The notes under the pieces are model-generated. The model saw only the letters and a program-made list of their open reading frames with translations, was not told the origin of the DNA and made no database searches. Shown here in pieces: positions 15,549 to 56,603 of a stretch of 64,000 nucleotides of DNA. Source of the stretch: a virus (taxonomy: Duplodnaviria; Caudoviricetes); the IMG/VR virus record IMGVR_UViG_3300033067_002132, positions 32,001 to 96,000 of that record, one strand, 5' to 3'. How positions within the stretch are numbered: position 1 is the first letter of the stretch; each line of letters opens with the position of its first letter. The position numbers and the translations under genes were made by a program.

Positions 15549-16254
15549 GAAAAATTAATAAAAAAAAGCGTAAGAAAATTGATAAAGTTCCGCCGTTACC
15601 GTACAGTTTTGCTTATGGGCAAAATTTACCTAGTTATCCAAATGATGTTCCCTCTTGGTATTACGCAGGAGCAAATAAATGTCTAAATTAAATACAGATT
15701 TTTCTGATTTAGATTTACAATATAAAATGATTAATGAATCGGTGACGTTTCTTGAACAAGAAATTAATAAAACTTATAAAGAAATAGAAATCGCCGAATC
15801 TAATTTTGATACGGAAGAATTAAAAGTTTTATATCACCGTTTATATTTCAATATCATTAAATTAAATCTTGAATTAAAAAATCTTGAAAGATGGAAGAAA
15901 GAAAGTATCATTCTATGTCAAAATCAAAAAAGCGAAAGTCTCCTAAAGGATATGAAGTAATTTCTGTCGATAAAAAATATCGATATGGGGTTTTTGACTA
16001 TAGTCCTGTAGGAAAACAAAAAGCTAAAGATTATATTATTCTTTTAAAGAAAAAAATTATTAATAATAAAGAAAAATTTAAAATACATATTGTATGAGTT
16101 TTCCTATAAAACAAAAATTAGCTTATAAATATCAATATTGGCGGCGAAAGTTTTTACTTTTTTTTGGAATCTGTCCAAAATGTGGGACTAAAGTGAATTA
16201 TACAACAATGGGTCGGCCGATTTGTCCTGAATGTTCTCGGTAAAATAAAAAACT

Positions 16255-16812
16255 ATGAAAAAACTACTATTATCTATCTCACTATTATTAACATCATTAT
16301 CATTAATTGCAGGAGATGTTACCGCTGCAAGTTATCGATACGGATATGGAATGCAATTTGTTCCTAATACTGGACGTACATGGTTCTGGAATCCTTCACG
16401 AAATCCTTCTTTTTATTGTCTTTATAAAGTAACTAGAAATGGAAATAATACAAATATAATTGTAACACCAATTACTCCTGTTGCTGGAAATTTAGAAATT
16501 GGTAAATTATATATTTTTCGTCTTATTTTTGATACAGGATATGATTTAAATATGAATAATTCATTTCCACAATCTCCATTGTGTTTAGAATATAATAATG
16601 GAATTTGGAATAGTATTTTACTTCCATGCCCACCTATGCCATTTTTTGATGATCGCATTCATTATACGTATGGAACGGATTATAAAATACAAATGTTAAC
16701 AAATGGACCCGTTGCATTTTTAATAAAAAATTACGTTGTTCGTGCAATTGATGCTCATACAAACCAAGATATTATTAATGGATTAGGTCCTGTTACGCAA
16801 TATTTACCTTAA
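16255..16812 (+). CDS. Secreted protein, paralog of 17361
   Basis: Signal peptide; shares W.W.P...P..YK.T..G.N and T.G.DYK..I.NG-like motifs with 17361. Confidence 0.65.
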   Translation: MKKLLLSISLLLTSLSLIAGDVTAASYRYGYGMQFVPNTGRTWFWNPSRNPSFYCLYKVTRNGNNTNIIVTPITPVAGNLEIGKLYIFRLIFDTGYDLNMNNSFPQSPLCLEYNNGIWNSILLPCPPMPFFDDRIHYTYGTDYKIQMLTNGPVAFLIKNYVVRAIDAHTNQDIINGLGPVTQYLP

Positions 16813-22463: not shown

Positions 22464-23432
22464 ATGAGCAATTATTTTCCTAATATCATTGGTCAAGAGC
22501 CCGCCGTTGGACAATTGACATTTTTTCTAAATAATTATCAAAAGCACCATATTTTTCCTAATCTTTTAATCACGGGAAGTCGTGGTTATGGAAAAACCGC
22601 GATGGTACGAACTATTTCTCAAAACTTATGGAATCAAGAGGATACAGCGCATAAAAAATATGTAGAAATTACAGGCGCTGATTTTCAAAAAGGAAAAGCT
22701 CTTGAATCATTTATTGAAAACGTAATCGAACCTTATACGGTCGGAAATCAAGAATGTACTTTATTTTTTGATGAAATTCATTTGGCCGATCCAACTGTAT
22801 TAAATTGGCTATTGCACGTTTGCGAAATTAATTCTGATAATACAACTCGTAATACCTATAAGGATCGCGAATTTAATTTTGATTTTAGATATTTTACCTT
22901 TCTTTCTGCGACCACGAATCCAGAAAAACTATCTAAACCGTTAATTTCACGTTTGGAACGTATTGATTTGCAGCCATATAGTTTACAAAATTTGGCGGAC
23001 ATTTTAGTTAAACATACTAAAGATAAATTAGTATATAAAGAAAATGTTGCGACCGATATTGTTAAATCAATGCGCGGCAATCCGCGATATGTTGTGAGTT
23101 TTCTTTCTCGAAAACTATTACCCTACGTTGCAGATAAAAAAGAATTTACTCCTAACGATTGGACTGATTTAAAGAAACAGTTATCTATTCATCCTCTTGG
23201 GTTGCATAGTAACGAAATTCAATTACTTAAGTTTTTACATAAACGCCAATCTGCCACGCTTACCGAAATCGCATGTTTTCTAGGATTAGATTCTGGAACA
23301 GTGCGGCGTGACTGTGAAAGCTTTCTCCTTTCGAATTATTTAATTAGAATTGACGGAAAAAGATATATTACTGGCAAGGGTACAGAATTAATCGAAGCTC
23401 TTGACAAAACGGAAAAAGCACCTACTATTTAA
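22464..23432 (+). CDS. ruvB: RuvB-like AAA+ ATPase
   Basis: IIGQ, G.RGYGKT, FFDEIH, ATT.P..L..PL.SR, RGNPR, LGL, C-terminal wHTH with E.FL and R.IT.KG. Confidence 0.75.
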   Translation: MSNYFPNIIGQEPAVGQLTFFLNNYQKHHIFPNLLITGSRGYGKTAMVRTISQNLWNQEDTAHKKYVEITGADFQKGKALESFIENVIEPYTVGNQECTLFFDEIHLADPTVLNWLLHVCEINSDNTTRNTYKDREFNFDFRYFTFLSATTNPEKLSKPLISRLERIDLQPYSLQNLADILVKHTKDKLVYKENVATDIVKSMRGNPRYVVSFLSRKLLPYVADKKEFTPNDWTDLKKQLSIHPLGLHSNEIQLLKFLHKRQSATLTEIACFLGLDSGTVRRDCESFLLSNYLIRIDGKRYITGKGTELIEALDKTEKAPTI

Positions 23433-28468: not shown

Positions 28469-29077
28469 ATGAAAGTAACAATTGATAACGAAGATTACGA
28501 ATTAGATATCGAAAAAGCTAAAGAATTAGGTCTTCTGAAAAAGAAGATTATTCTTAAATCAGGACAGGTTTATTCTAATGGATCTGTTAAGGTTCTATTA
28601 ATTGCTGATGATAATGAGGATAGTTTTATTTTAACAGGGCGTAATGGGAATATTTGCACATGTTTTTATGATAGTCCTAAAGATATCGATATTATTTTTA
28701 ATTTAATAGAGACTAAACAATGGAAATATGTTGGCGAATTAGGAAAAGATGTATCTTTGGATTATTTTAAGACTTAATTTATGAAAATTACAATTGATAA
28801 GAAAGATTACGAATTAAACGTGGAAAAAGCAAAAGAATTAGGTGTTTTAAATGAATATCGAGAATTAACACCAGGAGATATTTATAAAACTCCTAATGTA
28901 ACGGTGATTTTAGGATATAGTCATTACGATAGAAAATTTTATTTATTTGGTGCGACACAAAATCCGTTTCTTGGTTTCGGTGACAGACCTTTAAGTGCAG
29001 AAGATATGAAAAAATATTTAAATGAAATCGATTTTAAATTTGTTAAAAACGTTTCCTTAAATATAAATGATATTTGA
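28469..29077 (+). CDS. Tandem paralogs (28469-28777, 28781-29077)
   Basis: Shared N-terminus MK.TID..DYEL..EKAKELG.L. Confidence 0.7.
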
Positions 29078-29108
29078 CAAAACGGCAAATTGGATCTAAT
29101 ATGTCTTT

Positions 29109-29216
29109 GGTCCGCGGGGACCAGATAAAACCGCGCCAAGAGTCTCAATGAGGCACAAGATTCTTGGCTAATAAATGGGCCTCCATCCTGCGGGTGATGG
29201 TACAATGAGACCCGCA
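29109..29216 (+). ncRNA. Candidate ncRNA of three tandem H-type pseudoknots
   Basis: Starts at the predicted +1 of TTGACA-N17-TAATAT; six complementary stem pairs. Confidence 0.6.
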
Positions 29217-29900
29217 ATTATTGTAAGTAAAGAGTTAATTAGTATTAATTCTTGCCGGGGGTAAGCGTGACTTTGAATCCGCCGCGCCCCCGGATTTTAA
29301 TTTCCAGAAATTATGAACGAAAATCCTAGAACCGATGTCGATATACTAAATTATTTTCATAGTTTAAATACGTTCGCACACAGATTAGGATACGGGGGCA
29401 TTACTCTAACTAAAAAATATTTTAGCCTTACTAAAAATAAAACTGAATACCGTTTTGATAAATTAGATGAACTTTCGGTATTTCTTTGTGAAAAAAAGTT
29501 TGAATAAACAAAAACATGAATATTCGCGCATTCCTTAAAAATTGTAATCCTTTTGGTAAAAAGAATTGGCCCAATAAATACGTGATTTATAAGTTTAATC
29601 CGCCGGTATATGATGGGCCATTTTCCGATGAAAAAGCTTCTGAGGTTGCCTGTGAAAGTAGATGTTTAGCGCCGCAAATGGCGAATCAAATTTATATTTC
29701 AGATAAAATTCCTAGTAACGCCGAACATATTGATGGAAAACATCTATAATATGAATTCTTTTGATAAATATAAATATTATTGTATCTTTGTAGATTGTCA
29801 GCAAGAACAAAAAGAATTAAAAGATTGTCTGGATTTCGCGGTATCCAATGGTTATAATTTAGCAGCGGATAAAATTAAAAATCTGATTCTTTAGATTAAT

Positions 29901-31905: not shown

Positions 31906-32460
31906 ATGGATATCGATGCCTCTTTTATTGAAAAATATAAGTTTCTAATTCATTATAACATTAGAAAGTTTTCTAACTATTATGGAAGTTTAAATCGTTA
32001 TGAAGATTTTTTTAATACAGCTCTTTTAGTAATTTATAATAATATTGATAAATTTGATCAAACTAAAACTAAAGGAACATTAGAAGGCTTTTTATCTACA
32101 AAAATTCGGCAAAAGATTATTGATATTATTAGAACGGAAACTCATACTAGTTCAAAAAAGAAGGAAAAAGAAGTTCATATTTCATTTAGTACGCCCGAAT
32201 TAGAAGTTGTAAGTAAAAATTTAAAAGAAGAAGATAGATTAAAAGAAATCGACGACAAAGAAATTATATCTATCGCTTTAAATGAATTAGATGAAAGAGA
32301 AAAAGATGTAATTACTAATTTATTTTATAACGATACATTAAGCGTAGAATTAGCTAATAAATATAAAATCTCAGGCTCAATGGTTAGTCTTATTAAAAAT
32401 TCTGCGATGAAGAAAATGCGTGATAAATTAGAATATATGAATATTAAATCGGTTGTTTGA
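31906..32460 (+). CDS. RNA polymerase sigma70-family factor (regions 2 and 4)
   Basis: IDKFD.TK...F...IRQ.IID.IR; L..LDEREK.VI...FY......ELA....IS...VS.I...A.KKMR. Confidence 0.8.
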   Translation: MDIDASFIEKYKFLIHYNIRKFSNYYGSLNRYEDFFNTALLVIYNNIDKFDQTKTKGTLEGFLSTKIRQKIIDIIRTETHTSSKKKEKEVHISFSTPELEVVSKNLKEEDRLKEIDDKEIISIALNELDEREKDVITNLFYNDTLSVELANKYKISGSMVSLIKNSAMKKMRDKLEYMNIKSVV

Positions 32461-32489
32461 CGAAAGGGAAAAGAGATGGCATGATTAGA

Positions 32490-32850
32490 ACGTTGACCGG
32501 GAGTAAGACATTAGACGCTAATAACGGCTAATCTCGAAAATGAAACCGGGATTTGACATATTAAGAGTAAATGATGGCGCTATTAAGTCGTCTCTATAGA
32601 AAATTTTAGCCAAATCTAGGGGAATTGGATACCTTGTATCCGACCCGCTTTTGAAATACTAGACTTAGACGAAATTGAAAAGCTAAAGACTTTGGGGGTT
32701 GGGAGGAACTTAAAACCCCCTGCAATTTTTAAGAGAAAAACATCGGCCGATGGGAGAGTTTAAAAAACCATAACTATCCACGCGAGATAGGGATTAAATA
32801 AAAATATTCTAGCCCTGGTCGGGCTTTGATGCGTATTCTCTCCTCTCTTA
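32490..32850 (+). ncRNA. Candidate structured ncRNA modules
   Basis: ORF-free, downstream of TTGACG-N17-CATGAT; multiple stems and pseudoknot pairings. Confidence 0.5.
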
Positions 32851-32899
32851 TTACTAAATGCGGATTTGACAAAAGAGAAAAAGGCGGTAAGATGATTTC

Positions 32900-33636
32900 A
32901 TGTTAGTGAGGCATAGCTGACATTCACTTTCAGATTTAATAGATTTCCTAAGTTACCGTAAAAGGAACTAAAAATCTTTTAGGGTTTAGGCTAGAATACC
33001 TAAAATAGCACGTTCTCAATTGCTAATCTGACGAACGACAAATTAAATGATTAGCTAAAGGGCTCTGTATTAAAAATCTAGAAGTGGTGAAAGAGCATTA
33101 AACTTCTATATAATTTGGCCGTGATGATCGTACCAAATTTGATTGTTTTATTAATCATCTTAAAAGAAACCGGAATAGCCATACTAGTTAGGTATTGTTC
33201 CTAACGGATTAGTAGAAATATTAATCAGATTGTTCAAGTCGGTCATATGGGCTAACCCCATAAAATGGAGTTCCCCTTGCGAGGATAGAACTATAGGTTT
33301 CTTTTTATAAATTTTCGGTTATACCATACGAAACTAAGCTGAGTAAACGGTTAAAGATTTGAGGTTTAGCACTGTACAGGATCTCAAAATTCACTGTTGA
33401 AAGTCGAATATAAAACAGATATTCCTTAGCGGGAAAAAGGGTTTTATTGTTTGTTCTATAAATGGGCAGGCTAATATATAGTAACTTAGCCTTAAAATTT
33501 TAGGTAATAAATGTTGCAACGTTTATTTCCTAGTTTGGTGAAAACCAAGCTTACTAAGTAAATATACGTAATAAGGTGGAATAACCATTAATTACTATTT
33601 TCAATTGTGTGTATGCGAGCAAGGTCGCATATTTTA
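32900..33636 (+). ncRNA. Candidate large ornate ncRNA (~735 nt, GOLLD/ROOL size class)
   Basis: ORF-free; sigma70 promoter at 32866; nested long-range helices, GNRA-capped hairpins, one pseudoknot. Confidence 0.65.
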
Positions 33637-34770
33637 CTTAATAATTTGCACTGTGCTAAAGCCTCCCGTCTAATTAACGGTCCTATCAGCCGAGGCAATC
33701 CCGTATGATAGTAGTCGGGCCAAATTTAACAAAAGAATAATTATATGAGCGCAAAAGGTGTCCATGATCGTTGTTCAGAATTAAAAGATAATAAAGAAAC
33801 TCGCAATCTTAAAAACACTAAACGATGGCTTAAAAGAATAAAGCATCGAAAAGATCGGCGTGAGAATAAAGTAACAGAAATGGAATAATTATATGAATGG
33901 CAAACATCTTGGAGAATTATATTTAAAGTTTCATAAAGGTGATAGTCTTACAGACGCCGAATTGAAAGAATATAATAAATTTTGCGACGAAATGGCGAAT
34001 TTTTGTGGTGTTACAGGAAATTCAATGGTTCTGCCTCGATTTGCAATAGATTGGCAGACTACTGAAAACCAAATGTTTCATCGGAAAATTGATAAAGAAT
34101 AATTTTTTAAATTGTAGTCAGAGAAATCTGATGGGATAATGCGGAAAAAGATATACTAGTGAGATGTGTATCCTGTTGCCGCTGACCTAATGGGGAAGAA
34201 CCAGGCATCCCGGGAAATTGCTCACCAACAGCCTTACAATTTATTATTTGACAACACAGAAAAGAAAGTATATAGTCTTAACCATGACACCAAACGATAT
34301 TCAAGTAGGTAAAATTTACGTTAACTCTATTAAAAACCAAAAATATTTGGGTATTGGTTTACGAAAAATGTGGGAAGGAACCTTTGGTAATAAAGATTCA
34401 AATTTTGAAGAAAAAAGGCTTGTAATTATAGAAGGAAATCCTGAGTATATTGGATTAATTGTTCAATCTCCCGAAAATTGTTCAGAAGAATATTGGGATG
34501 ATTTCCGACTAGATAATAGTTAATTTTAATAGTATATGCGGACAGGCAAATGTGGGATAATTCGCCTAGGCCAATGCGACCGCCCCCACTATACTATTTT
34601 ATATAATTGTAAAAGATTTGAGAGTTAGAACGGTCAAAACATGCAAAGAAATCTACATTTCATTTGCAAACAATACCGGCATAGTGTAGAATATGTCTCT
34701 CAGATGGAATAATAGATACGACAGTTATAGTTGAAACATTTTTCTAAATAATTGCCGTTGACTGATTTTC

Positions 34771-34907
34771 GGCTGTATAGTTTAATTAGAGATCTGAATG
34801 GGTAGAAACAACTAAAAAGTACAATTAGGATGACTATCGGTAGGATTTCATAGTAAAACCTTGGAGTAATCCATTACATGCTTGGTCAATACAGGCTACA
34901 GCCACCA
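34771..34907 (+). ncRNA. tRNA-like RNA with expanded D-loop and variable region, CCA end
   Basis: GGCTGTA/TACAGCC-ACCA acceptor; GCTTG/CAGGC T-stem. Confidence 0.65.
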
Positions 34908-35237
34908 ATTTCATTCGGGTAAAAGATAGATGCTTCCAATAGAGCAAACCAAAAAATTTGTAGCTATTAGCGTATATGAAGCGAATAAGTAAACCAAAAG
35001 TTGAAATGCGAGTAATTATCGCGTGAAATCCTTAATTTACCCGGATGAAAATTTTATGAAAACATTTCTTTTAACTTATACAGAAGACGTTACTCATATC
35101 GGGGATGATAGCGAAAGAACAGAAATCAATACGGATTTCTTGCATACCACAAAAGAGCGGGCTATTATTCTAAGAGACGAAAAACTCGCCAAACCGAATA
35201 TTTATTCTAACGTTAAACTTTACGAACTGACCGAATT

Positions 35238-35585
35238 ATGAAAATTACTGTATCTTACGAAGAAGCGGTGAGGTTAATTTGCGAAAAGATTCCCGGCGCA
35301 ACGGAAGTTGTTATTTCGAGAAAAAAGAAGATTCCTGTATCAGATCTTCCTGTACAATGTAAACAAGCATTAAATGCGATTGCGCAGCATTTTACCGAAG
35401 AACAAGCGACAAGTGGAAAAATTCCTTTTATTAAAAGTATTCGTGAAATTTTTGCTCACCTTGGATTGGCGGATGCTAAATATTTAACTGAAAGGGGCCG
35501 ATCTCTTTTAATTAGAGAATTTTCTAAAGGAAAAATTCCCGTTTTTACTTTTGATCATATTCTTAGTTGGCAAGTTCCACATTGA
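35238..35585 (+). CDS. Protein with ribosomal bL12 C-terminal-domain-like motif
   Basis: KIPFIKSIREIFAHLGLADAKYLTE resembles KI..IK..R....LGL.EAK..VE. Confidence 0.55.
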   Translation: MKITVSYEEAVRLICEKIPGATEVVISRKKKIPVSDLPVQCKQALNAIAQHFTEEQATSGKIPFIKSIREIFAHLGLADAKYLTERGRSLLIREFSKGKIPVFTFDHILSWQVPH

Positions 35586-36646
35586 CTAATTGGAAATTCA
35601 TTTAAGTAATTTATGAAATTTCAAATAATTAAGCCAGTCGCCCGAGACAGTCAAATTTATAATGCGGCCGATAAGCCTGGAATGGGACGAGGAAAAAAGA
35701 TAATTCCTGGCGGCAGAGTGGTTGTTGACAAAAATATTTGTTTAATCTATAGTGTCATTGGATACGAAGAAAACAATGCTATTTGTCAAAGTTGGGACGC
35801 TTTTGGTACTGTTTATGAAGAAAGAATTCCAAAGGAAAATCTAATTTCTTATTCAAAAAATAAACTATCGCAAAAATCAGAAGAAGAAATGGAAAGAGAT
35901 TTAGAAGAACAACTTCTTTCTGAAACAGGGTGTACGTATTGGTCTAATTAAAAAAAATATGAAAGTTACATTAAATACCCCACCGGCACAAAAAATTGTT
36001 TGTTTAAATGATTTTAAAGATGGAGAAATTGGCGTTATTGATAAATGGATACATCCTCAGTATGAAGGACTTGTCGTTCAACGTTATGATACGGGTTTAG
36101 TTATATTTGGAAAAGAAACTCGCTCATGTTTTCCTTTCATTTATCAAGATAAGAATTTTCACCTTTTAAATGATATTAATAAAGCTGCAATTCGTTTGCT
36201 TAATTCTGGCGAATCGATTACTATTACTCCCGATTAATGATTAAATATCTTTTAATTTTAACTGATGTTGAAGTTAATCAGTATTATTATTCATTTTCTT
36301 CTGATAAGAATAAAGAAGAATTGAATGAAGAACTTATTAATGTATTAAAAAAATCTACACTTATTTATCCGGGAGTTTTTTATAATCATTCTGTACGTCC
36401 AAATTATGGTGAAAAATACGTAATTTTAACATTGGATGAATTCTGGGAAAAACATTTAAATTAAATATATGTCACTACCATTATGGACACTTCCCAAAGA
36501 AATTCGTAATTCTAAAGAAAAACATCAGCTTGTAATTCGGCTAAAAGATCATGAAGAATCTTTACAACGAGCAAAAAACATTGTAAAGTATCATGAGAAA
36601 AGAATTATTGAATTAAATGCGGAAATTAAAAAATTAGATCTATAAT

Positions 36647-36913
36647 ATGACAAAAGTCAATGTTATTTTATGTAATAAATGCGGCGATAAGATTTATAGT
36701 CGGGCGCGGCATGATTTTCGTTGGTGCTCTTGTAAATCTGTTGCGGTAGATGGGGGATTTGATTATCTTAAAATTTGTGGCGATTTAGAGAATGTTACTA
36801 AACTTACTGTAGAGATTCCCCAAACGAAAAAAGAATTATTTAACGATTGGAATTATAGATTTGATAAATACGGAGTAATTAAAGATATTGACGAAAAAGA
36901 AAATCTGGCGTAG
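36647..36913 (+). CDS. Conserved phage zinc-finger protein
   Basis: C..CGD.I.S...HDF..C.C..VAVDGG..Y. Confidence 0.7.
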   Translation: MTKVNVILCNKCGDKIYSRARHDFRWCSCKSVAVDGGFDYLKICGDLENVTKLTVEIPQTKKELFNDWNYRFDKYGVIKDIDEKENLA

Positions 36914-37004
36914 GGTAATTTTATTGGAGCCCGCATACGTGGCCCCCGGCGAACATGGGATACCGGGAATTAAAATGCGAAAGTTGTTCGTTGGCTCCAA
37001 TTTC

Positions 37005-37081
37005 GGACCTTTAGCTCAATTGGTTAGAGCGAAGCACTCATAATGCTTGGGTTATAGGTTCAAGTCCTATAAGGTCCACCA
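37005..37081 (+). tRNA. tRNA with CAT anticodon (elongator Met or Ile2)
   Basis: GGACCTT/AAGGTCC acceptor, AAGCA-CTCATAA-TGCTT, GGTTCAAGTCC, CCA. Confidence 0.92.
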
Positions 37082-38312: not shown

Positions 38313-38436
38313 GTTAATGTAGAAAATTGGCAAATCAGGGGGTTTGTACCGAAAACAGAAATCACAGGGAAGACCGCCGATTAATGATATAGCTGTTAGA
38401 CATTAATTTATGTAGGTTCGACTCCTACCATTAACT
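38313..38436 (+). ncRNA. Class II tRNA-like RNA with inflated anticodon loop
   Basis: GTTAATG/CATTAAC acceptor, TGGCAAA D-loop, GTAGG-TTCGACT-CCTAC T-arm; no 7-nt anticodon loop and no CCA. Confidence 0.6.
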
Positions 38437-45122: not shown

Positions 45123-45216
45123 GGTCCCATAGTTTAATGGTAAAACGCACGGCTTATACCCGTGATAAGCTCTAGATTTGGGCACGTTCTAGGTTCGAAT
45201 CCTAGTGGGACTACCA
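45123..45216 (+). tRNA. tRNA-Ile(TAT) with long variable arm
   Basis: GGTCCCA/TGGGACT acceptor, CACGG-CTTATAC-CCGTG, ~24-nt variable region, CTAGG-TTCGAAT-CCTAG, CCA. Confidence 0.85.
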
Positions 45217-46397
45217 ATTTTCTAAATAATATGAATACCATTACCACAAAGGCCAATCCTGTTATTAAAACCCCTAGAATTGGAGATCTTTATTTAGATA
45301 GTAATGAAGAATTATATATTTTAGCTAGAGTAGATCTAAACGTTTATTCCGCGATTTCTTTGAAGGATGGGGAACCTTGGACTTCGGACCCAAGACCAAC
45401 AGTTCAAGAAGCAATTTATGGCTTGATTTTTTGTAAAAGGAACGCTAAGATCACTATTGAATGAACGCCACCGAAGCAAATAAGAATAGAAAGATCGGCG
45501 ATAAAATTACCTTTAATTTGGATCATAGCCCGCATGCAATGGGCGAGGGAATTATCGTAAGATTCGACGATGATTACTGTATCGTAAAAATTACTAAAGA
45601 TTGTCAAGAATATGGTCTAAAATTTGAATGCGGGCGCGATATCGTTGTCTTTTTCGACGAAATAACGAGTAAATAATTATGAAATACATTCTCACCCAAT
45701 TTTTTCCTGAATTATCTTTTATTGGTAATGCGAGGGACGCACAATTAATTTTGAATTCTGAAATTCTTAAATAATGAATAATTTCGACCAACTATTTTTA
45801 TTGTTTTTCATCGTAATGTTTGTCTTGATTATTCTAAAAGTTACTCAGAATTAAATTATGCACGCGCACGATCTAAATAAGCTAATAAATAAGGTAATTG
45901 CCGCGAAAAGTGGGGATTCTATTTATATCGGCGAGTGTATGTCAAGTGAAGAATTGGTGGATTTTTATCTTTATCTTTTGCGGCGCCTAATTTTTCCTGT
46001 TGTTAATTCATATAAAGAGGGCGAAAATCTTTATTATATTTTAACAGTGAAGAAAAAGTAGTGGACTATTGACAAACAGAAAAAGAGATTTAGACTGGAA
46101 AAACATGAAACGCGCATTTATCCATCTACCTAACGGTCAAACGTTTGAACTAAACAGAACGAGTAATGAAGAAATAACAGGCGTTGAAGTTGTCCAATTA
46201 CGAAGCTCTATGAAGGAAGCAGTTTCGTTTAGTTCCGAAGCTTTTACTGGGCCTAATTTCGATAAGAAAGTTATTTTGGTTCTGTGGGGCGAGGTACTCA
46301 AAAATTCTTTTATCACGATCGAGTAGAAACCTATTGACGAAAAGTAAAAAAGGATTTAGCCTTTTCAAGTCGAACGAAACATTAACTGAAAAATTCA

Positions 46398-46943
46398 ATG
46401 AATACCGATACCATTGCCCCTACGCCGACCGCCGAAATCGTCTCGCCCGAGACTCAGGAAGCCGTTAACGCTCTGCTTGCCAAGGTTGACGCTCCTCCCG
46501 TGCAAGACGCGGTTGAAGTCGCGCCGCCTGTTTCTGAAACGGTTTCCGCGCCCATTGCGGAAATCATCTCTGCCCCCGCCGAATCGGTTTCAGCGGAAGT
46601 TCCCGCTCCCGCGCCGATTGCTGAAACTACCCCCACCCCCGCTCAGGTTGCGGCGACCCCTCCCGCCGCAACCCCTGCCCCTGCCGCCCCTGTGATTGAG
46701 GCACGCAAGGTTTCCGTCGAAATTCTTTTCCCTAACAAGGAAGAGTTTACCAAGCGGGATATTGAAGTAATTAACGAGACGAATTACGTCGGCGCAAGTG
46801 AGCTGATTAATATGCTCGTTAGTACGGGTCAGGTTGAAAAGGTCCGCAAGCAGCCTCAGGCTGGACGTGGCAAGCCCACCGATATTTTCCGGTTGACGCC
46901 CAAGGCGCCGATTGCGAAAAACAAGAAGAATAACAAGAAGTAA
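46398..46943 (+). CDS. Pro/Ala/Thr-rich N-terminal region plus winged-helix-like C-terminal domain
   Basis: GRGKPTDIFR wing motif like 31501; own promoter and terminator. Confidence 0.55.
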   Translation: MNTDTIAPTPTAEIVSPETQEAVNALLAKVDAPPVQDAVEVAPPVSETVSAPIAEIISAPAESVSAEVPAPAPIAETTPTPAQVAATPPAATPAPAAPVIEARKVSVEILFPNKEEFTKRDIEVINETNYVGASELINMLVSTGQVEKVRKQPQAGRGKPTDIFRLTPKAPIAKNKKNNKK

Positions 46944-46960
46944 CTTCGTCGGTCCTTCAC

Positions 46961-46992
46961 AGGGGGAGGGGGTTTTACCCCCTCCCTTTTCT
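46961..46992 (+). terminator. Intrinsic terminator
   Basis: G-rich/C-rich hairpin followed by a T run. Confidence 0.7.
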
Positions 46993-47230
46993 TCTCTCTC
47001 TATGAATATAAATAGGGAAATCATACTAGCTTCGCCCATACTCAAAAAGCAATGGGAACAATCGATGCTATCTATGGAAGAATTTATTCTAAGAGCGGTG
47101 GATAATTTTGTGGTAAATTCGAAAGGGGGATCGAATGGTATTTCTTCTAATTTTGGCTCTAACGGTAGTGCTGGGTGTTCGTCTCTAAACTCTTGACATC
47201 GAATTCGGTTTTGAATAATCTATTGCCCGC

Positions 47231-47893
47231 ATGAGAGTTCTATTCACCCGCATTTCATCTAACAAAAAAACGGGTCCTATTCCCGTCTCTCTTACAACCG
47301 CAGACTCATGCCCCGACGTTTGTCCTTTGAAGAAAAAAGGTTGCTATGCATTTTTAGGGTATATAAGAATTCATTGGGATCGTGCCAATAAAACAGGTAT
47401 GAAATGGGGCGAATTTTGCGTAGAAATAGCTTTATTGCCTTCGGGACAATTGTGGCGCCACGATCAGGCGGGAGACCTGCCAGGAAAGAATAACAAAATT
47501 GACGCGCCCAAACTCGCTTTATTGGTTGAGGCTAATCTTGGCAAAAAAGGATTTACTTATACGCATAAGCCTTTAACAAAAGAAAATAGCGCCGCGATTA
47601 AGTATGCGAATTCTAATGGTTTCACGATCAATCTATCGGCCAATAATCTAAGGCACGCAGATGAATTAGCTAAAAAGAACGTTGGACCGGTTGTGACGTT
47701 GCTACCAAAGGATCAAATGAATAATTGCTTGACCCCCGAGGGGCGCAAAGTTATTGTCTGTCCCGCAGTCACGCGAGTAAATACAAATTGCATGACTTGC
47801 AAGCTGTGCGCAAATGCGAAAAGGTCAGTTATCATAGGTTTTCCTGCGCATGGCGTGGCCAAAAACATTGTGGACAAGATCGCGAAAGAATAA
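47231..47893 (+). CDS. Cys-rich Gp88/DUF7227-like phage protein
   Basis: S.NKKTG.IPV, SCP..CP....CYA, RH..AGD, CPA......C..CKLC, IGF.AHG. Confidence 0.65.
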   Translation: MRVLFTRISSNKKTGPIPVSLTTADSCPDVCPLKKKGCYAFLGYIRIHWDRANKTGMKWGEFCVEIALLPSGQLWRHDQAGDLPGKNNKIDAPKLALLVEANLGKKGFTYTHKPLTKENSAAIKYANSNGFTINLSANNLRHADELAKKNVGPVVTLLPKDQMNNCLTPEGRKVIVCPAVTRVNTNCMTCKLCANAKRSVIIGFPAHGVAKNIVDKIAKE

Positions 47894-48171
47894 GTATATG
47901 GAAAAGAAATCGACATCCCTAATTTCGCTTCGTTATCGTGGTTTTAAGGTTAAGTATCTATGTCCCGGAAACGTGCGGGGATCGCGAGTTAAGATTATCG
48001 ATTTGCGACATGACGAATCGGTTACGCTTTGTTTAGAGGATGAATATCGGGATTCTAGCGAGCAAGCTTACAACTGGTTAGAAGAACACGGCATTAAGAT
48101 TGTCGCTACTATGCTGGAACGAAATGAGGAAGTTTTCTTGACTGAGGATTTCAAAACCCATATTGTCTAGG

Positions 48172-49390: not shown

Positions 49391-51140
49391 AATTTTATGC
49401 AAAACTTTCTAAATATCGCGAAAATAAATCGTAATAATTTTATTAAACGTTGCAGTAAATGCGACGAGGCAAAACTTGATTTATTCGAATATAAAGATAG
49501 TGTATTCGATGAAAAATTCACGCTAATTTGCTCGTGCTGTCATTACGTAATATTTAATCTCTCTGTTTTGGACTAAGAAAAACAGTTATTGACTTTCAAT
49601 CGGCGATTTAGTATTTTCTAACCATGAAACTTGACCAAGCTCTCGCCTATCTCAAAAGTTCCGGTTTCAAAATCACTCAGAAAGGCACAAAAACTTTTTT
49701 GGTTCAAAAGGGGAATGATCACCCTTGGCAAGCGGGAGAAGAGAAATTAATTAGAGTCGCGGAAAAGTACAAAAACATTCAAGAATAATTGACGCAAAAC
49801 GTTCACGTTTAAGTCTATGCAAATCACCCGCAGATCCCCCCTTACTGGCGAGAAGAATACTCGCGAAATTCCCGTGACTTTTCAAAACATAAAAGAATGG
49901 CAAAATGGTAAGTCAATTCAAGACGCTATGCCAAATCTTTCGGCGGAAGATCGAGAGTTTATTATGACTGGTTATACTCCCGAAGATTGGGCGAAAATGT
50001 TTCCGTCCGAACCTGAGAACTAAGTAAAAATTCTTATTGACGTTTAGCGCGGAATCGTTAGATTCAAGCCTATGAAATTAACTAAGTACCCTTTCAACGG
50101 AAGATGGCGCGTGGAAATGGTAGGAACGATTGACGAAATCGATTCTTATCTAATTCGCTTATACAATATTGGTGCGACAAATGCGACTTTTGAGCGCGAT
50201 CAATTGGAGACGTTTTTTCATATTGACTTGGAAAAGAAACGGTGGGAAAAGGCTTTGTCCGGCTGGTTGCAAATCCAAAATGCCGAAAACGAAACGCGCA
50301 AATTGTGCCGAATTGCACAGAAACAGCGCCGGGATAAAATTCCCATTTATTCGCAAGTAATGCAACGTTTGGCGCAAGAAGAAATCGCGGCAATTCCTAT
50401 TCCTGAAATCAAATCTGCTGTCCTGTCGCTTAAGAATCACGACTATAAGGGAATCTCTTATATCGTGGGGACCGATCATGAGGCGGAAATGATGAGTAAG
50501 GAAACGGAAATCCCTGCCAAAATTAACGTAAAGAAAATGACGGCGCGAAATTTTTCTTGCAACGCAACGGCAAGCGAGTAAGGATGAAGCCATGAACGGA
50601 CAAGAATTTTCCCAAAAGCAAACGGCAATCTTTAATAAGTATGAAATCACAGATCCGAGAATGGTCTCGATTATTTCATGCCAAGCTTGGGAGGATAATC
50701 ATTCGGACGGTTATGAAGCCGTCCTAGTAAAAACTGAAAAATATTGTCAGTTTACTGAAACGATCTTGAGTGCGTTTTTCGCTAGTATTAAATTGCGCTA
50801 AACAAGAATATAAGCCATGCCTCATTTGCCCATTTCTTTAGCTCTTTTGACAGATTTAGAAAGAGAAGAAAGCATAAGACGGGAAAGAACGGAAAAATAT
50901 ATCTTTGAAATAAAAGAAGCAAAGAAAGAATTCGAAAAAATGAATGAAATACATCACGGTTTTATTGGTTATTGGCCCGAAATGAACGAGCAAAAAAAGG
51001 CCAAACTATCCAGCCCTAAATGGGCCGATTTTCGGAAAAAGGGAAAAATCAAAGGGTGGCAGCGGAATAAACGTTGACGCGGAAATTAATTTAGGATAGG
51101 CTTTCGGTGTTGTGAGATTGGAGAGAGTTGAAACAACAAC

Positions 51141-51284
51141 GGCGGGGTAGTTTAATTGGTAAAATATTTTCCTTTTTTTGGTAGGCAATAGGGATCAATA
51201 TTGCCAATATCCGAAACGAAATCAAGACTGATCCTCTTGAATAAAATAAGGAAAAAGTTGCGGGTTCAAATCCCGCTCTCGTCT
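51141..51284 (+). ncRNA. tRNA scaffold whose anticodon loop is replaced by a two-hairpin kissing-loop insert
   Basis: Acceptor, D and T arms intact; TTTTCCTT/AAGGAAAA stem encloses ~75 nt. Confidence 0.7.
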
Positions 51285-52458
51285 GCTCCAATAATTAGCT
51301 AAAGTTAAATAAAGCTAAAAAAACAGAAAAACGAGGCGTCAAATTATACGCCTACACAACACAAAATGGAATATAAATATCTTCCCCATTACGACGATAA
51401 AACGTCAATAAGATTCGGCGAACTACCTTTGCCAAAGGAGATTTTTGCGCGGCAGGAATTAATGCGCGAAATTGGATTTACTGCGGGCGAGGAAGTTTGG
51501 AAGAAAGGGTATGGATACGTACCCATTTATTATTTCGTTCGCGAATTAACGAAAGACGAGCAAAATCTTTTGTGCCTTTGCCCCTTGACGGATGAGACGG
51601 CCGATGGTAAATTTCGTTCATGACGCCAATTACGCTGACCCCCGAGCAATTGCTTAACCTGCTTAAAGATTGCAAACGCGAAAGCGTTTTGTGCTGTAAT
51701 AGTTCGCTGCCAATTAAGCTTGTTTTGATCACTGAAATGCGTGAGGGACCGACAGGCTATTTGCCGCGCAGTATTTTCGGTGTTTATTACAAAAATCAAG
51801 TCGGGCGATTTTTTAATTCTTTGGAGGAAGCAATTGAATGCTATTGCCGAATTGAGAAAGCGAACGAAAGATTTCCTTGACGCTCAAAGACATTAGTTAA
51901 TACTCTCTCGCATGAACTCCACGATACTCAAAGTCTCTTATACTGGAACGCAGATTATCATCGCGAAAACGCTGGCCGCGATGCGAATTAAGAATCCCGC
52001 GCCGATTAAGTTCTATCCTACCAGAGCGGCGAGAGGAACTCATAACGTTGAGCGTATGTTCACGGTTTACCTTGAAGTTGAGACCACCACGGGGCGAATT
52101 CTGAGCGGCGGCGTGCAAGTTAACTAAATCTTTTATGGTAACAAAAACCTTTGCTTTCCTTCCTCTTAATAACAAGCAAGCAACGCCCGAATTTCGCTCT
52201 TTTATTTTGTCATTTATTGAAGGAATTAGAGTAGCGGAATCGGCACGCGGGCACGTTGTGCGAATTGAACCTACACTAAGCGGGGATTGTTCCGGTTGGT
52301 TGCTTGTATGCGAAGCGGAAATGGGAAAAGTTATTGGACAGTATTTGTCAAATCTCAATATTGAGCTTCGCGAGATTTGAAAACGCCCACTTGACAAAAA
52401 GCAAAGTCTCAGCTAACCTTTAGAAGTCGGTAGGAAAACAACGAAACGAAACAACACT

Positions 52459-52806
52459 ATGAAGAACGAAACCTTTGTGAACAGTCTCTTGAATGCGTCG
52501 GTCCCTACGGGCAAGATCGATTTGGCCGCGGTCCAGGCGGCGATTCAGGAAAAGAACGATGAGAACAACCGCGCCAAGATCGAACGCGCCCGCAATCTTT
52601 TCGAACGGTTGAATGGGGAAGTCACGTCCGCCGTGGAAAGCCTGCGAATCATTCGTCAGCAGGAAAAGGAAGCGAAGCAAACCGTGATTCGGCATGCTGC
52701 CGCTTTCGCCACGTTCAAGGAAACGGGCGATCTCAATAAGGTCGCGGCGATCCTGTACCCCGGCGAGAAGATCGCGCAGGAAAATTTCGTCCGCCGATAT
52801 TCCTGA
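52459..52806 (+). CDS. Hypothetical coiled-coil protein upstream of the pistol ribozyme
   Basis: ORF with own promoter TTGACA-N17-TAACCT at 52391. Confidence 0.7.
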   Translation: MKNETFVNSLLNASVPTGKIDLAAVQAAIQEKNDENNRAKIERARNLFERLNGEVTSAVESLRIIRQQEKEAKQTVIRHAAAFATFKETGDLNKVAAILYPGEKIAQENFVRRYS

Positions 52807-52817
52807 TCGCATAACAA

Positions 52818-52887
52818 ACTCGACTAGGCGAGTATAAATAGATAATTAAGCCTAGTGCGTTTGCGGGTAAAACCCCGCAAGGTTTAT
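52818..52887 (+). ncRNA. Pistol self-cleaving ribozyme
   Basis: ACTCG-ACTAGG-CGAGT-ATAAA-TAG-ATAA-TTAA-GCCTAGT-GCG-P3 hairpin-GT-TTAT; matches the pistol layout element by element. Confidence 0.88.
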
Positions 52888-53020
52888 GATATTAATTATA
52901 TATTATCTCCGAATTGCAAGTGCCTTGCGCCGCGCAATTTATCCCTGAAACAACAGGGGTTAAAAGCTTCAAGCTAAAGGAAAAAAAAGCCTTCGTGCTG
53001 TCGGTGTTTGTTTCCTTCGT

Positions 53021-53061
53021 TGAGTGGGGCGGGGAGAGAAATCTTCCCGCCTCATTTGTTT
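53021..53061 (+). terminator. Intrinsic terminator
   Basis: TGGGGCGGGGAGA-GAAA-TCTTCCCGCCTCA hairpin followed by a T-rich tail. Confidence 0.7.
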
Positions 53062-53097
53062 ATTGACATGCGCGGTGCATTTAGCTAATTTGATCGC

Positions 53098-53607
53098 ATG
53101 CAAGACCTGACCGCTTCTCTCGCCGATAGTCTTTCACGCAAACACTATCGCAAGACGCCTGCCATGTTTTCCGTCATGACTCTGCGCGATAAACTTCCTT
53201 TCGATTCTAAGCCTCTCGCCGATGATCCTAATAAAATTGCCGATTATTGTCGCCAAGCAATTATTGGCAAAAAAGGGTACAATCCCGACGTGGAAAGTTG
53301 TTGGGTTATCGTAATGAATACGCGCCGACGAATTGAAGGGCATTTTCTAGTAGCAACAGGAACTCTCGACACTTTGTTAGTTCATGCTCGCGAAGTGTTT
53401 CGCGGCGCTATTCTTGCCAATGCTGCGGCGATTGTTCTTATGCATAATCACCCAAGCGGCGACCCGACTCCGAGCGAAGCTGATATCCGCGTGACCCGAG
53501 AAATGATTAGAGCGGGCCAACTACTAAAAATCGAAGTATTAGATCACGTAATTTTAGGAGAACCTAAGCATTGCTCGCTTAAGGAATTAGGGTATTTTAC
53601 TTATTAG
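53098..53607 (+). CDS. radC: RadC/JAB-domain protein
   Basis: HAREVFR.AI, HNHPSGDPTPS.AD, LDHVI. Confidence 0.92.
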   Translation: MQDLTASLADSLSRKHYRKTPAMFSVMTLRDKLPFDSKPLADDPNKIADYCRQAIIGKKGYNPDVESCWVIVMNTRRRIEGHFLVATGTLDTLLVHAREVFRGAILANAAAIVLMHNHPSGDPTPSEADIRVTREMIRAGQLLKIEVLDHVILGEPKHCSLKELGYFTY

Positions 53608-54078
53608 GCAAAATTTGCCTATTGACTTTTCATTTTCGTTCTGATAGCTTTAAATTATGCAAATCGACAAGCAACTACTCATCGCCCGCAACACGCTTCT
53701 CAACCTGAACGAAGAGTTGGCTGGATATCGCATTTACTTCATGGGTGATAAATTCCGCGAGGATACCACGGTACAAGTTCATGAAATTCTTTCGCGAATT
53801 CTGATCCTTAAAGACCAAGTGGAAACCGCATTGGAAAGTGTCACAATGCCTTTCAAGGTTCAAGTGGCGGCGGGCGAATTGAATCCTGGCGATAAAGCTT
53901 TTTTGATCGAAACGAATCCCGAAATGGGAATGGAAGAAACCCTCGACTGGACCTGTACATATATCGGCCAAGAAAAGGTTCTTTTCGAATACGTAAAACA
54001 AGGAAAACAAACGAGAACCACAATGCGGAATAAAACTGAGATTGTTTGGAAACTGCGCTAAATTAAATTCGATTGAAA

Positions 54079-54294
54079 AATCCCCGATTCTAGAATTTAT
54101 TGCTAAATAAAAAGCCTACTCAAATTCCCTGGTTCTAGAAAGTCGCGCTAAATAAAAGTACGTAGCGCGGACCCTGGCCGATTGGGCGCATAGCGGGCCG
54201 AACTAGCCGGGGCAATTAGAGTAGAAACCCTTAAGAATTAAAACTATGGTAAAAACCCTTAAGAACAGGCGTTATGGTAAAAACAACTAAGATC
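54079..54294. repeat. Two sets of imperfect direct repeats
   Basis: 2x AAAT.CC..TTCTAGAA...GCTAAATAAAA; 3x GTA(A/G)AAAC..TAAGA. Confidence 0.55.
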
Positions 54295-54367
54295 AGCACC
54301 TAGAAGAAAAGAGCTAAGGAAAAGAACTATTGCAACGCCAATGGCTTTCTGCCAAGCTTTCGCTCCT

Positions 54368-54916
54368 ATGAATCCTATTGAAACCCTAAAGACATTCGCG
54401 CACAATCCTCCCGGATTTGCCAGTTTTACCTATACGGCAAAAGGTAGCGGGGAAACTGCGCGGCATACCGTCATCCTCGGATTTGACTACAACAAGAGTG
54501 TGGAAAAGAGCCTAACCGATTTGGCGTGCATTAATCGGGCGGATTTCCCCGCAATTTCGGATGAATTGTGGCCCGTTGCCGTTTCGGAAATTCGGGCCAG
54601 TCTCGAAAAGACGCTGGCCGCGCACGTAAGGGGCGAGCAAAACGCGGACTACACAAAAAAGGATCAGTATTTGTCCCTGGGGTTTTCTGGTATGCACGTT
54701 AACCTTAATGACGGAAGCCTACAAGTTTTCGGGCTGGCGCACGCTAAGACTGTCCTGGTGCCCGGCGAATATAAGCCCGTCAAATCCCGTCCCCTCACGC
54801 TGGCCAAGGAAGCCATCCGCAAGACGCTGGCCGTGGGAAAATTCCGCGAGTTTGCCTTTGACTCCGGGACGATACACACTGTCCGCATGAACGGTTCGAC
54901 CCTCGAAATCGAGTAG
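54368..54916 (+). CDS. Conserved hypothetical phage protein
   Basis: Long ORF behind a TTGCAA promoter; YK.VKS..LT.AK..IRK.L...KFR.F. Confidence 0.65.
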   Translation: MNPIETLKTFAHNPPGFASFTYTAKGSGETARHTVILGFDYNKSVEKSLTDLACINRADFPAISDELWPVAVSEIRASLEKTLAAHVRGEQNADYTKKDQYLSLGFSGMHVNLNDGSLQVFGLAHAKTVLVPGEYKPVKSRPLTLAKEAIRKTLAVGKFREFAFDSGTIHTVRMNGSTLEIE

Positions 54917-55347
54917 GGGGAAAGACTATGCTCTTTCTCCTAATCGTTATCATTATCATCCTTTGTGCCGCTTACCATGAATAGAATAAAAAACGCTATC
55001 CTAATTCTTTTTTGGGTAGGCGTAGGATTCGGCGTTATTTTCGTAGTTTTTACCTTTATTTCGAACCTTTATTCTTCCTAGTTATGAAGCTAACCTTTTG
55101 CCTTGTATGGGGTCGCAATCGCCAGTTTCGCCTAAGCGAGCAAGGCTTAGCTGTGCTGCGCGTCCTTCGTCCCTTTGGCCCCTTGCCGTTCCTGCGGTGG
55201 GATTCCGTTGTGCGATTCGATCCTGGCCTTGCGTTGCTTGCGTTGCTCTTTTCGCTCCTTTTCGCATTTACCTATTGACGGCAAAAACCGTGTCTGATAC
55301 CGTTTCCTTGTCGGTCGCAGAAACAACCAAAACAAATTAGATAGAAC

Positions 55348-56166
55348 ATGAAAGCCAAACTTTACTTGCACGCTGGCGGAGCCCTTACAACGTGGGACGC
55401 GCTTAATGCTCTGCCCACCCCGCCCGCGATTGGCAAACACGTCCCTGTTGGACACGCGGCCTTTTTGGACCGCATCGAAAGACTGTTGCCCGTGGACGGA
55501 TTCAGTGTGATCGAACGCCAGATTGCCGTCGCAAAGGACGGGGCGCGGATGTTTGCGCTCCTTCAACTAGCCCACCCTAGCCTAACGTGTGGCGATGGGT
55601 CAGGGTATATCATGGGTGTGCGAAACTCTCACGACAAGGCGTTTGCCGCTTCTGTTACCGTGGGCCGTTGCCCCTTCGTTTGCGATAATCTCGCGTTTTC
55701 GTCCGGGGCGGATGGTGTTGTCGTTAATCGGCGCCATATTGGGGGCGTGCATCGTGACTTGGGCGGAATGGTTATGGAGTTAATCGCGGGGCTCGCCGAT
55801 CGATTCCGGATTACGGATGCTCGGGACGCTTGTTATCGGGGCGCTACGCTTGACAATCGGGACGCTGATCACTTCGTTTTAGAGTTGTACCGCAACGGGG
55901 CGATTGGTTGGGGCGAAGCACGCCGTGTTCTCGCGGAGTACCACGGGACGGCCGTTAACCCCGACAAGGTTGAATTCCGTCATGCGGAATTCGAACCCCG
56001 GACCGCCTATTCTCTTTTCAACGCTTTTACGCAAGAATTGAAGGGAATTGACGACAAGGGTGTGGCCCACCCTAACGTTTGGGAACTCCCGAAGGCGACC
56101 GCAATCGCGTGCGAAGTGTTCGACCGCCTTTGCACCTTCAACCCCGCCGGGGCGATTGTCGTCTAG
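55348..56166 (+). CDS. DUF932-family protein
   Basis: G.RNSHDK, FVCDNLAF, RH, T.YSLFNAFT..LK. Confidence 0.8.
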   Translation: MKAKLYLHAGGALTTWDALNALPTPPAIGKHVPVGHAAFLDRIERLLPVDGFSVIERQIAVAKDGARMFALLQLAHPSLTCGDGSGYIMGVRNSHDKAFAASVTVGRCPFVCDNLAFSSGADGVVVNRRHIGGVHRDLGGMVMELIAGLADRFRITDARDACYRGATLDNRDADHFVLELYRNGAIGWGEARRVLAEYHGTAVNPDKVEFRHAEFEPRTAYSLFNAFTQELKGIDDKGVAHPNVWELPKATAIACEVFDRLCTFNPAGAIVV

Positions 56167-56176
56167 TGTGACTCAC

Positions 56177-56207
56177 GGGGAAGGGGGCTTTCCCCCTTCC
56201 CCCCTCT
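56177..56207 (+). terminator. GC-rich hairpin, possible terminator
   Basis: GGGGAAGGGGG/CCCCCTTCCCC hairpin with a weak tail. Confidence 0.5.
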
Positions 56208-56573
56208 CCTCAATTCCAATCTCTACCAACACTAAAAACCATGAATTCCACCATCGCGAAAAATCTCGAAAACTGGCGTGAGTCCCGCGGGCTTAACATT
56301 CGCCGAAACGAAGTCAACCGAATCCTCGCTCAACGGGTCGCAAACGAAGCGGCAGAGAACGCCCGGCGAGCCGAGGAAGCCTTGCAAGCGGGGCTTGCGT
56401 CAGATCGGATCGAACGTGCCAAACGTATGGGGGCTACCCCGCCCGCTTCTGCTATCGACGTAAAGTTTCGGCGCGGGTCGGATGGAAGGGGCGGGCGTAC
56501 TTTCTGGGAATGGATTTTCCCCAAGCAAATCGAGACTGTCGCGGCCTATTAAGTAAAAGCGCGTAGGCTATCG

Positions 56574-56603
56574 CCCCCTAGGTCACAAGCCTAGGGGGTT
56601 TTT
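56574..56603 (+). terminator. Intrinsic terminator ending the GC-richer block
   Basis: CCCCTAGG/CCTAGGGG followed by a T run. Confidence 0.8.

Follow-up and report, generated by a model that had tools for sequence, protein, structure and literature searches.

A conserved non-coding locus, probably expressed as RNA, behind the sigma-factor gene of a phage, with a candidate RNA family of two members

What is encoded, if anything, in the long gene-free DNA that follows the sigma-factor gene of the tailed phage (Caudoviricetes) held as IMG/VR record IMGVR_UViG_3300033067_002132? The window analyzed here, a 64,000-nucleotide stretch, corresponds to bases 32001-96000 of this 193,745-bp record, and the coordinates below are window positions unless stated otherwise. 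A sequence-only reading of positions 32490-37081 had proposed an undescribed system, namely an array of about 10 separately folded non-coding RNA (ncRNA) modules laid out like a tRNA operon. The analysis leads to a narrower answer: the find is a candidate two-member RNA family and not an 'undescribed system', set in what is probably a conserved ncRNA locus that host RNA polymerase reads rightward and early, that resembles the stable-RNA and tRNA clusters of large phages, and that contains a new RNA domain. What is observed is that the DNA lacks genes, that non-coding blocks in it surpass the flanking genes in conservation, that compensatory pairing is specific to one strand, and that promoter hexamers are conserved; transcription, processing into separate RNAs, and all function are what we infer from the sequence.

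The stretch immediately behind the sigma-factor gene, 32461-33744 (1284 nt), is the longest interval without a gene in the 193,745-bp genome on a crude gene map, which gives a coding density of 91%; the genomic G+C content is ~30%. No open reading frame (ORF) of at least 50 amino acids was found on either strand of this gap or of a second stretch at 34524-35022 (499 nt), whether translated with table 11, with TAG read as Q, or with table 4. Recoded genes were rejected as an explanation, as the alternative genetic codes open no frame in either stretch. Adding 34103-34283 and 36914-37004 brings the ORF-free DNA to ~2.06 kb, so that the earlier description of about 2.3 kb of intergenic DNA was apt in that the DNA is largely ORF-free but overstated its amount.

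An exhaustive HMMER search returned a sole relative, the protein P0100 with 47% amino acid identity to the sigma factor, encoded on a 2128-bp Logan contig designated L007. The sigma-factor gene anchors the gene order common to the window and this contig, which carries the upstream ORF (54% amino acid identity), the sigma gene, and then 882 nt without a gene. At the DNA level the two flanking genes are 66% and 64% identical between window and L007, whereas identity reaches 80% (85% without gaps) at 32585-32865, 87% at 32866-32927, and 70% at 33108-33310. Non-coding blocks that outdo the neighboring genes in conservation are under selection, and the proposal that the region holds functional ncRNA, not spacer DNA, is supported by these blocks and by the compensatory changes within them. 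The opposite view, in which non-functional spacer or decayed genes acquired their structure by chance, can appeal to shuffled sequences that give the same modular look and to the half of the modules with folding z-scores near -1; as an account of the locus it is scarcely credible, given non-coding blocks that outconserve neighboring genes and change in a compensatory manner. It is contradicted for 32585-33305 but tenable in 33323-33500, in 33641-33744, and in some of 34524-35022.

The part of the locus that can be compared with L007 is organized as follows.

31906-32460, plus strand: phage sigma-factor gene (Pfam Sigma70_r4/r2 and PHROG sigma factor), directly upstream of the gap
32457-32485, plus strand: promoter-like site P1, TTGACG-17-CATGAT, overlapping the sigma stop codon
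32585-32865, plus strand: Region A, the non-coding block labeled as having the highest sequence conservation with L007, at 80% nucleotide identity
32620-32646, 32647-32683, and 32694-32720, plus strand: Region A hairpins, a GC stem followed by a T run
32730-32850, plus strand: Region A branched domain, with a 12-nt palindrome and a covarying hairpin at 32774-32790
32866-32893, plus strand: predicted promoter P2, TTGACA-16-TAAGAT
32900-32923, plus strand: 8-bp hairpin, the predicted 5' end of the P2 transcript, conserved in L007
32928-33107, plus strand: variable cassette V, unalignable with the 205-nt L007 segment at the same place
33112-33139, plus strand: hairpin P0, overlapping a conserved TATAAT, with one compensatory change (U-A to C-G)
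33162-33305, plus strand: Block B, a multi-helix structured RNA domain of ~145 nt with compensatory changes relative to L007

In the predicted fold of Block B, helices P1 (10 bp), P2 (5 bp), and P3 (4 bp) stack and close a junction. From the junction emanate arm P4 (6 bp, with a conserved 7-nt loop), arm P5 (8 bp, with a GAAA loop, absent from L007), arm P6, which is a T-loop hairpin with a 5-bp stem and the tRNA-type loop TTCAAGT, and arm P7 (5 bp); a side hairpin, P8, and the invariant 11-nt strand ATAGAACTATA complete the domain. When the two sequences were aligned by hand, 30 of 45 pairs were unchanged, 2 had changed on one side, 12 showed double compensatory changes, and 1 was broken, with five of the double changes falling in helix P4 alone. 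A covariance model built from the window structure aligned L007 to every helix but P5 (137.6 bits), and in this alignment all cells (100%) are paired and 11 of the 46 pairs have changed on both sides, a compensatory count reached by 0 of 500 shuffles and compared with 1-2 in slid-partner controls. Over both alignments, and with P5 set aside, Block B thus has 11-12 double changes, 2-3 one-sided ones, and no more than 1 broken pair. Block B also folds below chance in both phages (window, z = -3.5; L007, z = -3.6), and the shared fold lies within 0.7 kcal/mol of the minimum free energy (MFE) structure of L007 itself. Its G-U pairs and its changes from U-G to C-G or U-A fit the plus strand only. 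The search for covariation suggested by the sequence-only reading was thus answered in the affirmative for this domain, on two sequences. Block B bears the compensatory substitutions by which a conserved structured RNA is recognized, and these make it a candidate new RNA family with two members and one well-supported fold.

Other searches bear on the size of this family. No match to deposited phages was found by blastn, and IMG/VR scans anchored on the sigma-factor and terminase proteins yielded no further relative. Scans of IMG/VR and the JGI metagenomes with the sigma alignment gave one match, of 31% identity (contig L008), without a similar RNA; word-indexed protein searches with both sigma proteins returned only self-matches; and exact-pattern scans of IMG/VR and 185k species genomes detected no homolog. 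Eight exact-pattern matches in IMG/VR were rejected as chance occurrences in antisense coding sequence. The neighboring DUF7695 gene has many homologs, in unrelated gene contexts.

The conserved blocks are accompanied by promoter-like sequences. Promoter P2 has the same two hexamers, 16 nt apart, in L007, even as the letters of the spacer differ; at promoter-like site P1 the aligned L007 site reads TTGACA-16-TAGGAT with a divergent spacer, and P1 may likewise function as a promoter. The earlier picture of interleaved sigma70 promoters holds for two sites that keep their hexamers in L007 but not for the ensemble, as promoter-like sites in total are no more numerous than in shuffles (56 vs 47.4 ± 6.2). 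The kept hexamers support a reading of the plus strand from host-type promoters. The hairpin predicted to begin the P2 transcript exchanges a U-G for a C-G pair in L007, where it gains one pair. That the TATAAT at hairpin P0 serves as a promoter is doubtful because L007 lacks a usable -35 element at this place.

In Region A, all 77 of 77 consensus pairs hold in both window and L007, with 4 double and 9 one-sided changes, a compensatory support weaker than that of Block B. Many of its G-U pairs are valid on the plus strand only, and in the hairpin at 32774-32790 two pairs are swapped and the loop length has changed. The domain at 32732-32860 folds with a z-score of -1.1. As the unpaired parts are conserved too, the stability is ordinary, and the 12-nt palindrome is invariant, an RNA role for Region A is likely and no more than that. 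Region A also contains the best example of a frame that might encode a small peptide: a 23/25-aa frame is open in both phages (32692-32763; L007 1261-1338), with a 6-nt indel that is in frame. An open frame is, however, to be expected from the near-identity of the two sequences alone, and this one begins with TTG, has no Shine-Dalgarno sequence, overlaps a GC-rich hairpin, and differs at three codons, two of them non-synonymously. No open frame is common to the two phages in Block B or in most of the stretch, and it is very improbable that small-peptide genes account for the locus.

The same features of Region A and the promoters could be read as regulatory DNA, that is, an early promoter and operator cluster in which Block B acts in cis as a riboswitch-like or protein-binding 5' leader. 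Two conserved promoters, the invariant palindrome, and several conserved TTGAC motifs are consistent with such a cluster, as are the conserved unpaired parts and unremarkable stability of Region A; in addition, Block B lies just upstream of an ORF in L007, and the invariant strands AATAG and CTATA could pair alternatively, as they do in the L007 MFE fold. Yet Block B is followed by different ORFs in the two phages, which speaks against a dedicated leader: the one in L007 has no homolog anywhere in this 193.7-kb genome, and a leader untied to a particular gene would be unusual. In the window, moreover, 420 nt of additional non-coding sequence follow Block B, and DNA sites do not explain 11 compensatory changes or the plus-strand G-U pattern. 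A purely regulatory or leader function is on balance a rather unlikely explanation.

Between promoter P2 and Block B the two phages carry different DNA. Cassette V of the window is unrelated to its L007 counterpart and folds like chance (z = -0.8), and the L007 segment at this place holds a degenerate tRNA (L007 1546-1616; Rfam tRNA, 38.6 bits) that has a 6-nt anticodon loop and is not called by ARAGORN. This exchange of a cassette between conserved blocks provides the best support for a modular, tRNA-operon-like reading. The operon-like layout proposed earlier finds backing in this swap of a degenerate tRNA but none in the spacers or the number of modules, both of which are like those of shuffled sequences.

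Indeed, the modular appearance proved uninformative in itself. The MFE fold of 32461-33744, computed with a 200-nt pair span, displays 13 helix-closed exterior domains with 46 spacer nucleotides that are 70% A+T, and 40 dinucleotide shuffles of the same 1284 nt display 12.1 ± 2.0 domains with 59 ± 19 spacer nucleotides that are 75% A+T. Because the shuffles match both the domain count and the spacers, the modular look is not evidence, and the claim of some 10 helix-closed modules with short A/T spacers describes no more than chance would produce. The folding energy is more informative: the whole of 32461-33744 lies below chance (z = -3.3), with values of -1.0 for 32461-33100, -4.3 for 33101-33744, -2.0 for 34524-35022, and -0.2 for a coding control, and the signal of the gap therefore sits in its second half. 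Four modules whose boundaries were taken from the fold have z-scores of ~-3.4 to -3.7 (33160-33309, 33501-33640, 34612-34710, and 34771-34910), six others range from -0.7 to -1.1, and a reduced genome-wide z-score scan gave mostly weak local signals. The notion of discrete folded modules consequently survives for Block B, which folds independently, and goes largely without support for the remainder; covariation and a fold unlike that of shuffles are both found in Block B, while shuffle-like folding is what many of the other modules exhibit. No sequence is shared among the modules or between them and the rest of the genome by blastn, and there are no repeats, iterons, or CRISPR-like arrays in the region. 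Paralogous modules were sought and rejected, with none in the genome by blastn and none for Block B by covariance model. The idea of a single system with further elements at 29109, 38313, 44838, and 51141 did not stand, as neither sequence nor covariance-model similarity connects them. The loop-loop or pseudoknot pairings proposed for nearly all modules, their processing into separate RNAs, and their roles as decoys, sponges, or ribozymes are likewise conjectural.

Elements beyond Block B, seen in the window alone, include the following.

33323-33744, plus strand: non-coding tail, without a counterpart on the short L007 contig
33611-33632, plus strand: terminator-like hairpin, followed by a T-rich tail (terminator scan)
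34524-35022, plus strand: second ORF-free stretch, with a branched hairpin and a tRNA-like element
34612-34710, plus strand: stable branched hairpin (z = -3.35)
34771-34910, plus strand: tRNA-like element (z = -3.5)
36914-37004, plus strand: GC-rich element, an outer 8-bp helix with nested helices, directly 5' of the tRNA at 37005
37005-37081, plus strand: tRNA-Met(CAT) (ARAGORN; Rfam tRNA, 73.6 bits)

Within the tail, 33501-33640 forms stable hairpins (z = -3.7), and 33338-33487 and 33641-33744 each score -0.7. Together with promoter P2, the tail invites a reading of the locus as one long, 'ornate' RNA of ~740 nt that would run from P2 (~32900) to the terminator-like hairpin at 33611-33640, with Block B as one of its domains. 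One strong conserved promoter and one terminator-like site at the far end would suit such an RNA, as would the second half of the gap folding far below chance (z = -4.3) and the precedents of the long ncRNAs of phage K beside tRNAs (PMC9241854) and of GOLLD and ROOL near prophage tRNAs (PMC5737381). In L007, however, only ~430 nt separate promoter P2 from the next ORF, nothing corresponds to 33323-33744, and the middle cassette has been swapped, and this shorter locus with its exchanged cassette means that no long-range architecture is conserved. The long-range helices of the MFE fold lack comparative support, and no Rfam match to GOLLD or ROOL was obtained. A single long RNA is accordingly an unlikely alternative, albeit one with a genuine chance of being correct.

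Further structured domains besides Block B are probably present in the locus, and 33323-33744, 34524-35022, and 36914-37004 are candidates with thermodynamic support. Inspected by eye, the element at 34771-34910 has an acceptor-type stem of 7 bp with ACCA behind it. Its 3' acceptor strand is immediately preceded by a 5-bp stem whose 7-nt loop (GTCAATA) resembles a T loop, and a 78-nt arm stands in for the D and anticodon arms; no match to a tRNA model was found even at E<=10, and the 5' acceptor strand overlaps with a promoter-like site (34752-34781). In the element at 36914-37004, a 6-nt loop could pair with a strand downstream of it, so that a pseudoknot is possible; its fold has a z-score of -1.1, in which pseudoknots are unscored, and it has no Rfam match. 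As a separate observation, TGGGATAAT occurs twice in non-coding DNA (34131-34139 and 34552-34560), where it reads as an extended -10 element (TGnGATAAT), and a third TGGGATA lies at 36956 within the element before the tRNA; TGGGATA is not enriched across the window (13 vs 7.7 ± 2.8).

Do known RNA families account for any of these elements? In 32461-37081, Rfam yielded nothing beyond the tRNA at 37005, even at E<=10, so that the modules do not all belong to known families. The presence of a real tRNA in the region was confirmed by tRNA-Met(CAT) (37005-37081, 73.6 bits). In 32490-37004 the tRNA family RF00005, whose threshold is 29 bits, had no match at E<=10, and no cloverleaf was recognized. 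Models of self-cleaving ribozymes (pistol, twister, hammerhead, hatchet, and HDV-like) had no match in 32461-37081; the pistol ribozyme noticed earlier at 52818 is genuine, spanning 52818-52887 at full length (68.6 bits, E ~1e-10), and lies outside the region. GOLLD (RF01998) and ROOL (RF03087) gave no model match at gathering or permissive thresholds. A Y RNA (YrlA) reading was rejected because no gene for the TROVE (Ro60) protein was found in the 193.7-kb genome, under a search in which control genomes scored; it also had no Rfam match.

The tRNA and tRNA-like surroundings described at the outset are borne out by the tRNA at 37005 and by tRNA bodies with inserts at two other places. At 38313-38436 the acceptor, D, and T arms are kept, with 70 nt in place of the anticodon arm (29.4 bits), and at 51141-51284 the anticodon loop of a tRNA body is interrupted by a 75-nt insert (47.2 bits). 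Neither insert is long enough for a group I intron, and both elements thus look like non-decoding tRNA 'shells'. A tRNA-Ile(TAT) with an unusual extra arm of ~20 nt lies at 45123-45216 (65.1 bits). At 29074-29300, a promoter (TTGACA-17-TAATAT), GC-rich hairpins (29105-29220, z = -3.0), and a GC-rich hairpin with a T run at ~29256-29300 follow one another in what looks like a self-contained small RNA gene.

Several described phage RNAs offer points of comparison. RNAC (species 1) and RNAD (species 2) of T4 are stable RNAs of unknown function (PMC9697503) and, like those proposed here, are folded non-coding phage RNAs of ~100-150 nt among tRNA genes; no sequence or model similarity to them was found, the present RNAs lie behind a gene for a sigma factor with 3.7 kb between them and the nearest true tRNA, and any co-processing with tRNAs is conjectural. 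In phage K, two abundant long ncRNAs (lnc001/lnc002) adjoin tRNA genes (PMC9241854), and GOLLD and ROOL occur near tRNAs in prophages (PMC5737381; 10.1101/2024.12.08.627333). Like the present locus, these are long, ORF-free, promoter-driven structured loci whose phages or prophages belong to low-GC bacteria and which often adjoin tRNA genes. The phage tRNAs at 29901 and 37005 provide a context of this type, although a single structured RNA of >500 nt is conjectural here and the relative's locus is much shorter. Unlike GOLLD and ROOL, the conserved unit is small (~145 nt), has no Rfam match, and has surroundings that are swapped between relatives. YrlA and the tRNA-like domain of tmRNA set a T-loop hairpin and stems of acceptor type into a larger RNA that does not decode, as the present locus does, and the element at 34771-34910 resembles tRNA-like domains in its ACCA end after a 7-bp stem. 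The phage locus differs from them in the lack of an Rfam match, of a TROVE gene, and of an ARAGORN tmRNA call, and the T-loop arm of Block B (TTCAAGT) is not adjacent to the closing stem. Finally, theta ribozymes lie 3' of phage tRNAs with the cleavage site at the tRNA 3' end (PMC10879173); like these and other HDV-like ribozymes, 36914-37004 is a small folded RNA next to a phage tRNA, but it lies upstream, 3 nt before the tRNA, and matches no ribozyme model.

The neighborhood of the locus consists of small early-type genes, nucleotide-metabolism genes (dCMP deaminase-like, DHFR), and scattered tRNAs, with ARAGORN placing phage tRNAs at 29901 and 37005. A 115-aa ORF at 35238-35585 has a weak likeness to the C-terminal domain of ribosomal protein L7/L12 (E=2.8e-4, under the Pfam threshold). 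At 34248-34284, a near-consensus promoter (TTGACA-17-TATAGT) ends 7 nt 5' of the ATG at 34284, which suggests that the 79-aa ORF starting there might be read from a leaderless mRNA. The stretches 46000-48000 and 50000-57000 have a G+C content of 0.40-0.55, compared with ~0.30 elsewhere, and contain the DUF7227 and DUF932 genes and the pistol ribozyme; this raised stretch may be a foreign insert or a distinct genome module. Two more ORF-free gaps lie outside the window, at genome positions 15751-16564 (L017, 814 nt) and 23040-23419 (L018, 380 nt). Each starts with a short likeness to the promoter region 32866-32927 by blastn, and both gaps may be further ncRNA loci of the same phage.

How, then, might the conserved ncRNA locus operate? 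Host RNA polymerase would start at the sigma70-type promoters at 32457 and 32866 on the plus strand and produce one or two primary transcripts comprising Region A, the 5' hairpin, the variable cassette, and Block B. The folded domains would persist as stable RNAs, probably once host tRNA-processing enzymes had cut the transcripts, and would act in trans by virtue of their shape, through protein binding or tRNA mimicry, instead of by base-pairing to the neighboring gene. Several considerations weigh against this account. Just two sequences exist, so that the covariation rests on one pairwise comparison; the model alignment of Block B was fitted to the structure, and helix P5 is not conserved. 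Shuffled sequence reproduces the modular appearance, and neither Region A nor the gap's first half folds better than shuffles do (z ~-1). The conservation of Region A could be at the DNA level, reflecting operators or the 12-nt palindrome, for example, and the L007 ORF starts ~19 nt past the end of Block B, which is compatible with a leader. The transcript and its cutting into domains, lastly, are predictions from the nucleotide sequence, as is any function.

A bolder proposal would join Block B, Region A, and the tRNA-shaped RNAs (34771, 38313, 51141, and the degenerate tRNA of L007) into one swappable library of tRNA mimics, expressed early, that occupy or mislead host proteins recognizing tRNAs, be they tRNA-cleaving defense nucleases or tRNA-processing and -modifying enzymes; alternatively, Block B might represent a new ribozyme or ligand-sensing class. 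We regard these ideas as speculative and improbable, if still worth stating. The stable folded RNAs that large phages carry beside their tRNA genes, exemplified by T4 RNAC and RNAD, have for decades lacked a known function, and the present locus furnishes a clean case, with ncRNA that outconserves a sigma gene, a compact 145-nt fold armed with a T-loop, and an exchanged middle cassette. If such RNAs are tRNA mimics directed against host defenses or control host RNA enzymes, they would constitute a new layer of phage-host conflict.

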